This document shows positions 3,045 to 18,823 of a stretch of 64,000 bases of DNA, piece after piece. This stretch comes from Candidatus Lloydbacteria bacterium RIFCSPHIGHO2_02_FULL_50_18. GTDB taxonomy: Bacteria; Patescibacteriota; Minisyncoccia; Phycocordibacterales; UBA6899. Below the pieces are notes generated by a model. It did not search any database, had not been told where the DNA came from, and worked only from the letters and a program-made list of their open reading frames with translations. The stretch's first letter is position 1. Every line of letters starts with the position of its first letter. The stretch covers positions 64,001 to 128,000 of the forward strand of contig MHLM01000001.1 in NCBI GenBank assembly GCA_001821395.1, in the 5' to 3' direction. The translations under genes and the position numbers were made by a program.

Positions 3045-4670
3045 ATGTTATCTCTTACCATTGCCATCATCATATTGAACCTTTCTCTCGGACTAGCAAT
3101 TCTCGTCCAATCTAAGAGGGGTGTCGACGCGGGTGTTTTCTTTTTGATCACGCTGGCATTTTCCGCACTTACTATCGCAAATTATCTCTCACTTACCACC
3201 GATCCCAACGTCGCACTGTATTGGGTTCGCGCGGAGATGTTTATCGCCGCATGGCATACGTTCCTCTTCTTTGTCTTTGTCCACGCATTTGCAAAAAGTC
3301 ACTTTGAATATTCTCTCAAACACAGCCTCATCTTTACGGTACCATTCATCATCATCCTGGTGATCTCTGTCTCGCCCTACCTCTTTTCAGCCGTTGCCCT
3401 CAATAAGAACGGGCTCGTAGAGACGATCCCGGGGAATCTTTTCCCCGTCTTTGCCCTCTGGCTTCTGGGAACAATGTTCCTTTCAATGCGGCGTGTCGTC
3501 ATAAATTTCCGGTCAAGTACTGGTACATTGCGCTCGCAGTGGAAATATCTGCTCATTGGTTCGTGCTCGACCTACCTCTTGCTTATTATTTTCAACTTCA
3601 TTTTGGGGGGTTTTCTGCAAAACACAAGATTCCTTGCATACACTCCGATATTCTCCTTGCCTATTCTCTTTGCGACGGCATACGCGATCGTCAAACATAA
3701 CCTTTTTGATATTAAGGTTCTTGCGACTCAGGCATTCGTCACGATCATTTCGATCTTTTACCTCGTGAGAATCGTCGTTGCAACAACAATGACCGATCGC
3801 GTGATCGGCGGAGTGATCTTTGTCACAACGGTATTCTTTGGCTTCCTGCTCATTCGGAGTGTCAAAGAAGAGATTCGAGCGCGTGAAAAGATTGCACTTA
3901 TGGCGAAGAGCCTCACTGATACAAATTGGGAGTTGGCAAAATCGAACGAGCAGCTTCGCATCATCGACAAGCGCAAGAGCGAGTTTGTTTCCATCGTCTC
4001 ACATCAGTTGCGCACCCCGATCACTGCCATGAAGGGCTACTCATCGCTCCTTCTTGAGGATTCCTACGGACCCATCACCGATGCAGTTCGCGCTCCGATA
4101 GAAAAAATATTCGTGTCGTCAAAACGTCTCGCAGAGATGGTGACCGACTTCTTGAACATCTCGAAGATCGAACAAGGAACAATGACCTACACGTTGACCC
4201 CGGTTGATGTTGGTACAATGATCACGGATCTCACCGAAGAATTTATCCCCGTGGCGCGTCTCAAGAACATTAGACTGCAGGCTGATGTTCCGACCAGTGA
4301 GAAGTTCATCGTGAATGCTGACGATGGAAAACTTCGCCAAGTACTGTCAAATCTTATTGATAATTCGATCAAATATACACCGCAAGGCGGAGTAGACATT
4401 TCTGTTGAAACGTTGCTCGAGCGCGACCTTATCCTCATTAAGATCAAAGACACGGGTATCGGGCTTTCCCAAGAGGACATCCACCATCTCTTCGGTAAAT
4501 TTACCCGCGGTTCGGAAGGACAGCGGCACAACACTGATGGATCAGGGCTCGGTCTCTATGTAGCAAAGAAAATGCTCGAAGCACAAGGAGGAAATGTCTG
4601 GGTGGATTCAGAAGGCCCCGGCAAAGGTTCAACGTTCATCATTGAACTCCACAAGGAAGGAGAAAATTAA
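3045..4670 (+). CDS. Sensor histidine kinase with N-terminal multi-TM (7TM-type) sensor region
   Basis: About 7 hydrophobic segments in the N-terminal 290 aa. Canonical H-box 'VSHQLRTPITAMKGY'. HATPase_c G-boxes 'DTGIGL', 'GSGLGLYVAKKM', 'GGNVWVDSEGPGKGSTF'. Confidence 0.85.
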   Translation: MLSLTIAIIILNLSLGLAILVQSKRGVDAGVFFLITLAFSALTIANYLSLTTDPNVALYWVRAEMFIAAWHTFLFFVFVHAFAKSHFEYSLKHSLIFTVPFIIILVISVSPYLFSAVALNKNGLVETIPGNLFPVFALWLLGTMFLSMRRVVINFRSSTGTLRSQWKYLLIGSCSTYLLLIIFNFILGGFLQNTRFLAYTPIFSLPILFATAYAIVKHNLFDIKVLATQAFVTIISIFYLVRIVVATTMTDRVIGGVIFVTTVFFGFLLIRSVKEEIRAREKIALMAKSLTDTNWELAKSNEQLRIIDKRKSEFVSIVSHQLRTPITAMKGYSSLLLEDSYGPITDAVRAPIEKIFVSSKRLAEMVTDFLNISKIEQGTMTYTLTPVDVGTMITDLTEEFIPVARLKNIRLQADVPTSEKFIVNADDGKLRQVLSNLIDNSIKYTPQGGVDISVETLLERDLILIKIKDTGIGLSQEDIHHLFGKFTRGSEGQRHNTDGSGLGLYVAKKMLEAQGGNVWVDSEGPGKGSTFIIELHKEGEN

Positions 4671-16995: not shown

Positions 16996-17354
16996 AATTT
17001 CGCCTCTAAAGGTAATTTTGAGCTCGATAAATAAGCCTTAAATATTGTGCGACACGAAGAGTTGAAAAAATACCTGTGAATATTCTCGGTATAGATATCT
17101 TTGAATGGACCCGTGACTATGCGGCGGGTGATGACACCGTCTCCGGTTCAAGATAACAGTTGTATAATGGTGGGATTGTTTCTTTCAAGAGAATTTGAAG
17201 GATGAATATGAAGGCACGGGATATCAAAGGTAATCGAGACGAAACCTGTGGCCGTACCGAGCCGTTCTCAATACAGCATTACGTCGCAAAAGATATATTG
17301 TGCGACGTGATGGCGTAAACAGGAAGAACCCAAGAGACGCCCACTTTCCACTCA

Positions 17355-17397
17355 CCTTCTTTATGTGGGTCTCTGACCTTCTTTATGTGGGTCTCTG
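17355..17397. repeat. Perfect 21-bp tandem direct repeat (2 copies, 1-nt spacer) 'ccttctttatgtgggtctctg'
   Basis: Read directly: copy 1 at 17355-17375, copy 2 at 17377-17397. Abuts/overlaps the stop of the NUDIX gene (-). Confidence 0.8.
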
Positions 17398-17880
17398 TTT
17401 GTTCCGCAAATAAAGTGTCTCTACTTCAACAATTTTCTGTTCGAGCACAATGTCGTCTTTTCCGAAGAGAAATGCTGCTTTGAATTTTTTACGACCCAGT
17501 AAAAGCGGGAACCAGTAGATATCGTCCGGCCACATATCAGCAAAAGGGATCGCATCGACGTGAAACCATTCCGGTAGCATCTCCTCGCTTTCTTCAGGCT
17601 CGCCAACAAAATTATCAGTACGATACACATGCACCTCAAGGAGAACGGGGTCTCCCTCAAATGCAAAATCGATGATCCCAACTTTCTCAAGATCTTTAAC
17701 GAGGATTCCCGCCTCTTCACGCATTTCTCGTATGGCACCTTCCTCGATAGTTTCTCCGGGTTCAACCTTTCCGCCAAACCCATTCCATCTCCCCTTTCCG
17801 AATCCCCGCTTTTTCATTCCTAGCAACACACGCGGATGCTGATGGAGAATGCATAGCGTTAATACTTTTTTTTGATCCAT
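17383..17880 (-). CDS. NUDIX hydrolase (MutT-like)
   Basis: Nudix box 'GGKVEPGETIEEGAIREMREEAGI' (GX5EX7REUXEEXGU). Confidence 0.8.
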   Translation of the reverse strand: MDQKKVLTLCILHQHPRVLLGMKKRGFGKGRWNGFGGKVEPGETIEEGAIREMREEAGILVKDLEKVGIIDFAFEGDPVLLEVHVYRTDNFVGEPEESEEMLPEWFHVDAIPFADMWPDDIYWFPLLLGRKKFKAAFLFGKDDIVLEQKIVEVETLYLRNKQRPT

Positions 17881-17882
17881 TG

Positions 17883-17953
17883 TCGGGCTAGGCAGAATCG
17901 AACTGCCGCCACATGCACCCCATGCATGTAGACTACCACTATCCGATAGCCCG
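17883..17953 (-). tRNA. tRNA-Pro (anticodon GGG), CCA not encoded
   Basis: Hand-folded cloverleaf (minus strand): acceptor CGGGCUA/UAGCCCG 7/7. D-loop AGUGGUA. Anticodon stem CAUGC/GCAUG 5/5 with loop AU-GGG-GU (U33, G37). 4-nt variable loop. T-arm GGCAG-UUCGAUU-CUGCC. Discriminator A. Confidence 0.6.
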
Positions 17954-17959
17954 ATTATT

Positions 17960-18400
17960 TACTTGTTATTGTACACTGAAATCTCAAACTGGTGCATGCA
18001 CACTATCCCGATATTGCATGTAGACGAGCACTGATACAATAGCCCGAAACTTATTACGTTATTTTACACTCATCACGAACCTCGTGCATGCACACTATCC
18101 CGATATTGCATGTAGACGAGCACTGATACAATAGCCCGATGTTTACTCTTCTACTTCAATTCTCCACTTGATGCACCCCATGCATGTAAGCATCCTCGCG
18201 CAAAGCCGCGAGACCATGGGATGCTTTCTCGATACAGAACGAGCCACCGGCTCGCGCTCTGCACAACTCGCTTTCTCCGCAAAGCCTCCGAAATCGATCT
18301 CGAGTAGACGAGCACTGATACGATAGCCCGAACTTACTTTGTTATTTTACACTCATCGCGAACCTCGTTGCGTGCACACTCTATCCCAAAATGCACTAAA
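17960..18400. repeat. Tandem array of ~90-bp degenerate repeats built from tRNA-Pro sequence blocks (at least 3 units plus fragments)
   Basis: Identical 55-bp cores 'tgcatgcacactatcccgatattgcatgtagacgagcactgatacaatagcccga' at 17994-18048 and 18086-18140 (period 92). Diverged unit 18333-18390. Partial core 18303-18330. Exact 18-nt copy of the tRNA anticodon stem-loop 'atgcaccccatgcatgta' at 18172-18189. Cores end in the tRNA 5' block 'atagcccga'. Confidence 0.7.
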
Positions 18401-18435
18401 AATCAAAACTCATTCGGCAAACCGAATGAGTTTTG
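18393..18435 (-). terminator. Rho-independent terminator downstream of the HxlR-family gene
   Basis: 14-bp perfect stem 'caaaactcattcgg/ccgaatgagttttg' with 4-nt loop, followed on the minus strand by 'auuuuuag'. Confidence 0.65.
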
Positions 18436-18493
18436 AGTATATCAGAATTGAAGAAATTTGCGACGGACACGAACGAATGTCGATCTCCACACA

Positions 18494-18823
18494 TCAGGCA
18501 TTCTTTTTTGTAAACGATGCTCCCCAATTGTGCATCACCTTGAGTATGGGCTCGAGTGATCGTCCGAGCGCAGTAAGCTTATATTCAACTCGAGGTGGAA
18601 TTTCCGGATATACCTTTCGGTCAACTATCCCATTTTTCTCGAGGTTTCCCAGTCTCATGGAAAGAGTTCTGGGAGAAATACCAATAAGTGACCGTTCAAG
18701 CTCACTAAAGCGCCGAACACTGCCAACAAGTTCACGTAAAACAAGAACCGTCCATTTACTTCCAATGACCTGAAGCGTTGCTTCTACCGGGGAATGCACT
18801 ACTTTTTTTGAGTATTTTTTCAA
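18494..18823 (-). CDS. HxlR-family (MarR-like winged helix) transcriptional regulator
   Basis: 'LQVIGSKWTVLVLRELVGSVRRFSELERSLIGISPRTLSMRLGNLEKNGIVDRKVYPEIPPRVEYKLTALGRSL' is the HxlR-type HTH pattern. Confidence 0.8.
   Translation of the reverse strand: MKKYSKKVVHSPVEATLQVIGSKWTVLVLRELVGSVRRFSELERSLIGISPRTLSMRLGNLEKNGIVDRKVYPEIPPRVEYKLTALGRSLEPILKVMHNWGASFTKKNA

Follow-up and report, generated by a model that had tools for sequence, protein, structure and literature searches.

Fragments of transfer RNA (tRNA) genes have been described in several repetitive or interrupted arrangements. In the tyrT operon of E. coli, 178-bp repeats (rtT RNA, RF00391) lie downstream of the tRNA and carry its last ~19 nt; they are transcribed along with the tRNA, whose processing sets them free. 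tRNA genes are also classic targets of integration, the anticodon stem-loop being a known crossover site, and attachment-site repeats have identical cores, usually restore the 3' part of the tRNA and flank kilobases of element DNA with an integrase. In the split and tri-split tRNAs of Nanoarchaeum and Caldivirga, the halves end in the anticodon loop and bear complementary joining sequences, and an intact gene is missing. The sublocations of integrative elements within tRNA genes were reportedly treated by Williams in 2002. Group I introns of Patescibacteria reside in the anticodon loop of otherwise complete genes for tRNA-Asn or tRNA-Asp, can be detected by covariance models and self-splice. 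Here we analyse a locus that shares single traits with each of these systems. In a 64,000-nucleotide stretch of Candidatus Lloydbacteria bacterium RIFCSPHIGHO2_02_FULL_50_18 (contig MHLM01000001.1, positions 64,001 to 128,000; "the window" hereafter), the gene for tRNA-Pro(GGG) is preceded by tandem units derived from its own 5' half.

We interpret the region as a copy-number-variable array of "pseudo-5'-half" modules that come from tRNA-Pro(GGG) and occupy the leader between a conserved promoter motif and the tRNA-Pro-NUDIX pair. As a description, this is very probable. That the modules also act as RNA in cis is suggested by their conservation and pairing potential, and here we are clearly more reserved, the odds being somewhat against such a function. 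For description and cis function blended into one explanation, we estimate a probability of about 0.5. A search of the literature on comparable tRNA-linked repeats returned nothing describing this element (the paper on Patescibacteria introns mentions neither tRNA-Pro nor tRNA pseudogenes), and the design of the array has apparently not been described before.

The repeat array beside tRNA-Pro(GGG)

The original prediction, made by reading this stretch alone, had placed a tRNA-Pro on the minus strand, with a tandem array directly on its 5' side. The gene was borne out by both methods applied: ARAGORN called it (17882-17953, minus) as the sole tRNA of the 64 kb window, and Rfam model RF00005 matched 17883-17953 with 53.9 bits (E 3e-10), the gathering score being 29. 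The match holds for the true tRNA gene alone. On 17954-18400, RF00005 matched none of the repeat units even at E up to 10, and the units possess no T arm, 3' acceptor strand or anticodon loop.

Units 2 and 3 (Table 1) start 92 nt apart and have identical first 56 nt (TCGGGCTATTGTATCAGTGCTCGTCTACATGCAATATCGGGATAGTGTGCATGCAC), and over their whole length 83 of 97 aligned columns match, the AT-rich tails of 36-37 nt having diverged. A covariance model of the unit core, R2, scored 65.2 bits for unit 3 and 63.2 bits for unit 2; on unit 1 it found a partial match of 20.7 bits (18302-18331). At least three units of ~92 bp, two of them with identical 55-bp cores, had been predicted. Two units indeed have this size, and their cores are identical, with a measured length of 56 nt; the third, the predicted "diverged unit", does exist and spans 192 nt, being interrupted by a 117-nt insert that had escaped notice. 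The exact 18-nt copy of the anticodon stem-loop is present as well, starting one position from where it had been placed (18172). Beyond the third lies the remnant of a fourth unit, which has lost its 5' half; what is left of it is the palindrome (GTGTGCACGC), a loop that has decayed and a tail containing TAAAAT. The suggestion of a pseudo-tRNA array, or serial duplication at a tRNA locus, was correct.

Tandem Repeats Finder did not call the array; only two full copies exist, and their tails have diverged. Two core patterns occur three times and twice in the window, against 0.00 expected from 100 shuffles. Two independent assemblies (L001, L003; loci from other assemblies are designated in this way throughout) agree at 100% identity along 1451 nt of the locus, and a third contig (L002) ends inside unit 2. 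Identical copies of the locus are present in JGI 3300002502/3300002529 and ENA ERZ27254752. The array is not an assembly artefact.

Dispersed repeats, that is, repetitive extragenic palindromic sequences (REPs), bacterial interspersed mosaic elements (BIMEs) or miniature inverted-repeat transposable elements, were rejected, because within the 64 kb window the core patterns occur at this locus only. The first two had been named beforehand as the finding that would overturn the prediction. They are ruled out within the sequence searched, R2 matches being confined to tRNA-Pro loci in all 233 kb searched (about 25 genomes; E-values from this home-made model are rough).

Table 1. Features of the locus in the window. 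Units are ordered reading upstream from the tRNA, and every array feature is on the minus strand.
Feature	Position	Strand	Remarks
NUDIX hydrolase gene	17383-17880	minus	ATG 3 nt past tRNA 3' end
tRNA-Pro(GGG), functional	17883-17953	minus	ARAGORN call and Rfam RF00005
Unit 3	17955-18047	minus	adjoins tRNA; repeat families D1-D3, D5, D8; palindrome I5
Unit 3 core (56 nt)	17992-18047	minus	T+CGGGCTA, D-region variant, CTACATGC, loop AATATCGGGATAGT, palindrome GTGCATGCAC
Unit 3 tail (37 nt)	17955-17991	minus	AT-rich
Unit 2	18048-18139	minus	repeat families D1, D4
Unit 2 core	18084-18139	minus	identical to unit 3 core
Unit 2 tail (36 nt)	18048-18083	minus	89% identity to tail of upstream remnant
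Unit 1 (192 nt)	18140-18331	minus	older, interrupted; repeat families D3, D6; same architecture in L006
Unit 1 spacer (31 nt)	18140-18170	minus	
Exact 18-nt anticodon stem-loop copy in unit 1	18171-18188	minus	repeat D6
Insert in unit 1 (117 nt)	18188-18304	minus	GC-rich; separates 5' part from anticodon stem-loop copy
Structured RNA inside unit 1 ("E-RNA")	18188-18304	minus	homologues and compensatory changes
Unit 1 tRNA-like 5' part (27 nt)	18305-18331	minus	
Fourth-unit remnant	18332-18397	minus	repeat families D4, D5, D8
Intrinsic-terminator-like hairpin (15 bp, then TTTTT)	18403-18436	minus	downstream of HxlR; kept in L006
Extended -10-like motif TGATATACT (TGnTATACT)	18436-18444	minus	
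HxlR-family regulator gene	18494-18823	minus	directly upstream of array

Distribution, design and conservation of the units

A scan of one genome per species with a pattern of the tRNA-Pro anticodon arm and T loop yielded 18 loci. Among the 14 species-representative genomes with the same tRNA body, 11 contain from one to at least three upstream units of the same design and three (L015, L020, L023) contain none; units are also missing in two genomes with a different tRNA-Pro body (L012, L021). When metagenomes were scanned for a unit-specific pattern, six stretches were returned. Three of them were new examples (L032, L035 and L030, the last identical in sequence to L025), and the other three (L031, L033, L034) were discarded as GC-rich chance matches. 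Through HxlR homologues we reached L041 and L042, which have two units with expanded loops, and L040, with only a short copy of tRNA nt 1-17. The comparison of copy number in relatives that had been proposed earlier thus gives 0 to at least 3 units, and their content differs too. R2 scores are 53-82 bits for full-length units and 42-52 bits for the tRNA's own 5' part; one unit with a 30-nt loop (L042:1691-1762) scores 40.9 bits. Judged from these comparisons, the units are a lineage-wide element and not a local accident.

The nearest homologues of the NUDIX and HxlR proteins belong to Parcubacteria/Paceibacteria metagenome-assembled genomes (Wildermuthbacteria, Lloydbacteria, Sungbacteria and others), and the host is a bacterium of the candidate phyla radiation (CPR). 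Several contigs with HxlR homologues stop just past HxlR, where the array would start. In L002, L037, L038, L039 and L041, assemblies made independently from short reads end at the array or just short of it; breaks induced by the repeats would explain these contig ends.

In the closest relative, L006, the NUDIX protein shares 92% identity with that of the window, and the gene order is the same. Its layout runs from promoter motif and terminator hairpin through remnant, unit 1 with the same insert, anticodon copy and spacer to the tRNA. Units 2 and 3 are not present, so they were added, or retained, in the lineage of the window after the split. Between the two loci the tRNA-Pro sequence is 100% identical, HxlR coding DNA 90%, the remnant 70% and the spacer 69%.

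All units follow a single plan: tRNA nt 0-31, a replacement loop, GTGCATGCAC(C) and a tail of 35-44 nt. Their parts are, in order, the acceptor 5' strand, a variable D region, the anticodon-stem 5' strand, the loop, the palindrome and the tail; TCGGGCTA and GCATGCACC are sequence blocks of the units. The loop that stands in for the anticodon loop measures 10-16 nt (up to 30 nt) and resembles tRNA nt 5-17. Behind it, in all units, the stem's 3' strand runs on as GTGCATGCAC(C), a feature missing from the tRNA. Loop replacement and GTGCATGCAC(C), being common to all units, argue for a single origin, and the design would be explained best if it arose once in an ancestor and was then passed on vertically within a Parcubacteria clade. 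In L042 (1594-1762, minus) the loops have grown to 21 and 30 nt by internal CATG(A/G)CTAT repeats, which indicates slippage inside the loop. Short ATG-initiated frames in the units, as read from the sequences, are not conserved between species.

Conservation of the units is a mosaic. Mean pairwise identity among 15 genomes is 0.95 for the block of T plus acceptor 5' strand, 0.53 for the D region, 0.91 for the CTACATGC block, 0.39 for the loop, 0.90 for the palindrome and 0.31 for the tail. Such a pattern argues for constraint on the units themselves, and for selection over decay. It is hard to obtain by homogenisation from the tRNA, because the diverged D region sits in the middle of the tract and because the CAC(C) following the stem is not in the tRNA; the homologous stretches that remain are, moreover, too short for ordinary gene conversion. 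Tail sequences are unrelated; of 21 distinct tails, 19 measure 35-39 nt. From one unit start to the next, the spacing is 88-102 nt in all species. Copies within one genome are identical or nearly so, while species differ.

The last observation is also what would be expected if the array were a neutral by-product, in which an ancestral duplication of the tRNA 5' half persisted as junk, changed its copy number by unequal crossing-over and had its 5' parts refreshed from the tRNA ("birth and death with a master copy"). Rapid turnover, with 0 to at least 3 units between relatives, the lack of units in L015, L020 and L023 though their tRNA is identical, and several other partial 5' and 3' tRNA copies at the same locus all fit this history. 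So do the D stems, which are often broken, and the self-complementary anticodon stem, which makes direct and inverted repeats favouring slippage. However, refreshing from the tRNA leaves the conservation of the unit-specific CAC(C) unexplained, as it does the D region, at 0.53 in mid-tract between 8-nt blocks at 0.91-0.95, and the fixed tail length. The palindrome is kept where the opposite strand has mutated (L018), and these are small genomes with little non-coding DNA. We therefore find a purely neutral history doubtful, though it has to be taken seriously. Conservation is block-specific, the unit-specific CAC(C) is invariant, tails have a fixed length and the units persist in small genomes; with moderate confidence, we favour a cis function at the RNA level over neutrality.

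The probable leader and its possible function

Up to 650 nt upstream were scanned for the promoter motif in the 20 related loci reaching past the first unit (21 with L030, the copy of L025). Exactly one TGnTATA(C/T)T motif was found in 19 of the 20, always upstream of the first unit; L015 has no motif. Its distance from the tRNA is -17 or -18 where there are no units, about -109 to -149 with one unit, about -201 to -244 with two and -490 in the window. As the motif always precedes the first unit, the array has been built between promoter and tRNA, and it is probably a transcribed 5' leader. In the window and in L006, the terminator hairpin takes the place of the first unit's 5' half. It may terminate read-through from HxlR, attenuate the tRNA promoter, or both.

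On the 3' side of the tRNA, the gap of 3 nt between tRNA and NUDIX gene leaves no room for a promoter or Shine-Dalgarno sequence of its own. NUDIX genes lacking a Shine-Dalgarno sequence start 3-10 nt past tRNA-Pro in the window (17880-17883), L006 (2194-2198), L025/L030 and L029; the tRNA-NUDIX linkage is conserved. Processing of the tRNA 3' end would free a nearly leaderless NUDIX mRNA. The NUDIX stop codon itself is spanned by a perfect 22-bp tandem duplication (ACCTTCTTTATGTGGGTCTCTG x2, window 17354-17397).

The position of the array in front of the tRNA could also be read at the DNA level, as multiplied promoters or an operator array. Promoters in the tails would then serve the next unit or the tRNA, and the palindrome would bind a dimeric regulator such as HxlR, tuning tRNA-Pro and NUDIX. 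The HxlR gene recurs as a syntenic neighbour of the array in several relatives. From the invariant 10-bp palindrome to the start of the next unit the distance is fixed at 46-54 nt, the tails are constrained in length, and hexamers resembling a -10 box show mild enrichment 4-16 nt ahead of the following unit (3.71 vs 3.01, p about 0.02). The terminator-like hairpin after the main -10 motif in the window and L006 would even make internal promoters necessary. Against this stand a consensus promoter scan that revealed no sigma-70-type promoter inside the array, the poor match of the palindrome's last bases to a -35 hexamer, and the strong TGnTATACT motif, which is never duplicated in the tails (for the same reason, promoter duplication was rejected as the source of the tails). 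Furthermore, L029 (GTGCATGCGC; GCGCC) and L024 (GTGCATGTAC; GUACC) break the DNA palindrome and keep the RNA pairing through G-U pairs. On balance an operator or promoter role seems unlikely, but it is a live alternative, and it would not exclude a cis function of the RNA.

Two hairpins can be drawn in the units. The anticodon-like stem can form in 99% of unit sequences. Most units are also predicted to form a 5' hairpin, made by the acceptor 5' strand and the D region's 3' part; several D-region variants keep or improve it (GCUCG vs CGGGC in the window; also L017, L026 and L042). Measured by folding energies only, the mean z of this hairpin over 20 units is -1.4 relative to shuffled D regions. 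The three conserved blocks are exactly the segments complementary to the 3' half of the tRNA: the acceptor 5' strand is complementary to tRNA nt 66-73, and GCAUGCACC is antisense to nt 36-44. In the minimum-energy fold of units 2 and 3 together with the tRNA, the acceptor strand of a unit takes the tRNA 3' strand, and the two palindromes pair with each other.

From these elements, the cis function that we favour may be pictured as follows. Copies would be gained and lost by unequal recombination or slippage between the tRNA-derived blocks, a process that the self-complementary anticodon stem (CATGCA/TGCATG) probably favours. Array and tRNA would share a transcript, from which RNase P cleavage would remove the array, and each module would fold into two hairpins, one between acceptor 5' strand and D region, the other the anticodon-like stem. 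The conserved blocks would be kept for their ability to pair with the tRNA 3' half, the acceptor strand with nt 66-73 and GCAUGCACC with nt 36-44. In this way, modules could influence in cis how the pre-tRNA folds and matures, and hence the release of the near-leaderless NUDIX mRNA. They may also serve as carrier for the embedded RNA.

A number of observations weigh against this picture. First, the modules are dispensable, L015, L020 and L023 having none despite an identical tRNA. In the window (18403-18436) and in L006, the terminator-like hairpin starts on the final base of the -10-like motif, and transcription of the array may depend instead on the weak -10-like sites in the tails. The anticodon-like stem never varies and thus offers no covariation in support of an RNA structure, the 5' hairpin is missing from roughly one unit in three, and the potential for this pairing was already present in the ancestral tRNA sequence. 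The fold of the whole leader is no better than that of shuffled sequence (z -1.3) and only illustrates potential. Other partial copies at the same locus, 5' copies in L029 and L040 and 3' copies in L013, L016, L020 and L035, imply a strong mutational process, which could run without any function. Finally, the promoter and all processing steps are deduced from sequence, and the loci compared were gathered by way of a single tRNA sequence and a single gene neighbourhood, which limits the known distribution.

The 5' copies just mentioned (L029:4930-5000, minus; L040:455-516) are different from the units and short, and lie between the promoter and the first unit or the tRNA. They combine CGGGCTACC, which is acceptor-like, with a small hairpin (GAGATATCAGAATATCTC) and a duplicate of tRNA nt 1-17.

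Embedded RNA, other tRNA-framed elements and known systems

The insert in unit 1 is an RNA-like element in its own right. Its GC content is 58% (47% in the window), and the predicted fold comprises a three-way junction (P2 loop GAGGCUUUGCG, P3 loop GGUG) and a 3' hairpin with loop GCUUUG. BLAST detected two homologues, one in unit 1 of L006 and one free-standing (L017:3405-3540, minus), about 2.8 kb from the tRNA-Pro of that genome and followed by a terminator of its own. Covariance model R1, built for the insert, matches just these three copies in the sequence searched (its E-values, too, are rough). Window and L006 differ at four positions in 117-118 nt (96.6% identity), against ~70% identity in the flanks. 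All three sequences align throughout, and 12 of 40 predicted pairs change on both sides yet stay paired, a small sample since window/L006 and L017 represent only two independent lineages. The stem around the conserved GGUG loop reads CGAGCC/GGCUCG in one lineage and AUCCGC/GCGGAU in the other, and that around GCUUUG reads CUCGCG/CGCGAG and GCCACG/CGUGGC. The 117-nt insert thus shows what is generally expected of a conserved structured non-coding RNA, and it matches no Rfam 15 family. Small open reading frames overlap it, but a 1-nt indel relative to L006 breaks any frame, and the insert is likely non-coding.

The relation between insert and array is visible in the D region as well. The variant found in the window (CAGTGCTCGTCTAC) is closer to the 5' flank of the L017 copy (CAGGAGTCTCGGCTAT) than to the tRNA. 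Because units 2 and 3 carry the same variant, they were derived from the 5' part of unit 1 and not directly from the tRNA. In L017 the free-standing version (3336-3565, minus) is ~215 nt long, with extra 5' and 3' helices and its own intrinsic terminator. A tRNA-Leu gene is found about 0.6 kb away. This version probably represents a small RNA gene of its own.

Two candidate identities of the insert were rejected. A group I intron is contradicted by the lack of an Intron_gpI match at E up to 10 (216-nt query), by the position after tRNA nt 26/27 and by the fact that no 3' exon (T arm, acceptor strand) follows. A split tRNA fails likewise on the missing model match, the wrong position and the absent 3' exon.

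Other structured elements framed by tRNA sequence were observed in relatives. A different insert of ~125 nt lies in the D loop of an upstream pseudo-unit in L017 (788-914) and L029 (4727-4851, minus); identity between the two copies is 83%, and their hairpins persist despite indels. Directly after tRNA-Pro, L013, L017, L019, L022, L023 and L007/L008 have an element of 130-140 nt (type A, e.g. L022:2176-2307, minus), which is not found in the window. Its start reads ..AAGGAGG.GCTGAGAAAG, and its end repeats the tRNA 3' end (GATTCTGCCTAGCCCGACC); GGCAGAAUC pairs with this repeated end in a closing helix. In all, 9 of 39 predicted pairs show compensatory changes, and Rfam gave no match. Each of the D-loop inserts ends in a hairpin whose UGUAA loop is like that of type A. 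Type B elements (150-165 nt) follow tRNA-Pro in L012, L020, L032 and L040 (e.g. L032:763-921) and end in a tRNA 3' fragment. Their internal antisense segment covaries with the T stem, being GGCAGAATCGAA where the tRNA has TTCGATTCTGCC and, in L012, GAGGGAATCGAA where the tRNA has TTCGATTCCCTC; the motif GAGGCTTTGCG is shared with the insert of the window. A single family uniting the window insert, the D-loop inserts and the downstream elements was considered and rejected, since BLAST and R1 do not link them. What they share are short motifs only (GAGGCUUUGC; UGUAA hairpin loops).

Mirror images of the 5'-half units also exist. About 30-95 nt downstream of the tRNA, L013, L016, L020 and L035 contain 3'-half pseudo-units (e.g. 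L013:2014-2075, minus), in which the anticodon loop ATGGGGTG is followed by the conserved TCTATATTCATT.CTGGGAC in place of the stem 3' strand, and which continue with a T arm and a 3' acceptor strand. By eye, the unit loops were compared with the insertion of these pseudo-units for possible pairing; matches were partial and inconsistent, and the idea was rejected.

All four inserts seen in 5' tRNA-Pro sequence (window, L006, L017 and L029) are in an upstream pseudo-unit, never in the functional tRNA. The pseudo-halves might accordingly be landing pads or decoys, absorbing insertions or nucleases aimed at tRNA-Pro and sparing the essential gene. Yet selection alone would leave the same pattern, insertions in the real tRNA being lethal; the window insert behaves as a conserved RNA gene, free-standing in L017, and not as a multi-copy mobile element; and most units have no insert. 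We hold this explanation to be quite improbable.

The RNA-level cis function can be extended to all these elements. The modules would then be a selected, undescribed class of cis-acting leaders that, having kept the exact acceptor 5' strand and anticodon-stem sequences, compete or pair with the 3' half of nascent tRNA-Pro and so gate RNase P maturation and NUDIX mRNA release. Together with the downstream RNAs that end in a 3' fragment, the 3'-half pseudo-units and the 117-nt RNA they would form a Parcubacteria-specific system of RNAs framed by tRNA fragments. This is a speculative proposal, which we consider rather unlikely to hold in full. Partial tRNA copies beside tRNA genes are usually dismissed as integration scars or junk. 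The present ones are set apart by one design across many small-genome species, block-specific conservation, a probable transcribed leader and an unannotated RNA with strong support from covariation. If the modules do act on folding or processing of pre-tRNA, they would represent a new kind of leader regulation of bacterial tRNA. Even if neutral, they are a clear example of concerted turnover of tRNA-derived repeats, and the locus breaks short-read CPR assemblies, giving a recurrent assembly gap, and points to at least two families of structured RNA that are not in Rfam 15.

Comparison with known systems starts from integration, since "scars of repeated integration/excision" had been offered as one origin of the array. 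Repeated site-specific integration and excision at tRNA-Pro would have left the partial copies behind. Like attachment sites, these adjoin an intact gene of a kind typically targeted and involve the anticodon stem-loop, a general crossover site; relatives have 3' tRNA fragments downstream, set off by elements of 130-165 nt, and small structured inserts occur inside the tRNA-derived sequence. In contrast to attachment sites, however, the copies are 5' and not 3' parts with an altered and enlarged replacement loop, not identical core sites, and are spaced by just 35-44 nt. No integrase family occurs among the genes within about 4 kb on either side. Viral contigs, scanned with the unit core, the 5' and 3' parts of the tRNA and the motifs of downstream element and insert, gave nothing or chance coding matches. 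A design common across species fits descent better than repeated independent integration. This part of the original prediction is thus very improbable.

With clustered regularly interspaced short palindromic repeats (CRISPR), the array has in common a constant repeat (the 56-nt core) alternating with spacers of 35-39 nt that differ between species. Here, the repeat is tRNA-derived, always abuts tRNA-Pro and occurs in 2-3 copies, tails within an array are related or identical, and cas genes are missing within about 4 kb. It had rightly been held not to be a CRISPR array.

Split tRNAs also have separate 5' halves, several of which could in principle combine with one 3' piece. In our case an intact tRNA follows, and the units contain both strands of the anticodon stem and no anticodon; neither joining sequences nor a splicing endonuclease context were found around them. 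The tRNA introns of Patescibacteria are similar in that the phylum is the same, a structured RNA interrupts tRNA sequence and predictors miss the interrupted copies. They differ in position, the insert of the window being at the junction of D arm and anticodon stem, in a copy without 3' half, and having a free-standing homologue.

Rfam searches on the window region (2.5 kb and 216 nt) and six related loci, with E up to 5-10, returned the true tRNAs and chance matches, and the rtT family (RF00391) matched nowhere at the locus. The tyrT repeats resemble the array by analogy only: in both, tandem repeats in a tRNA operon each contain a fragment of the neighbouring tRNA. Those of tyrT are downstream, whereas the units described here are upstream, carry the 5' half with both anticodon-stem strands and belong to a CPR host.

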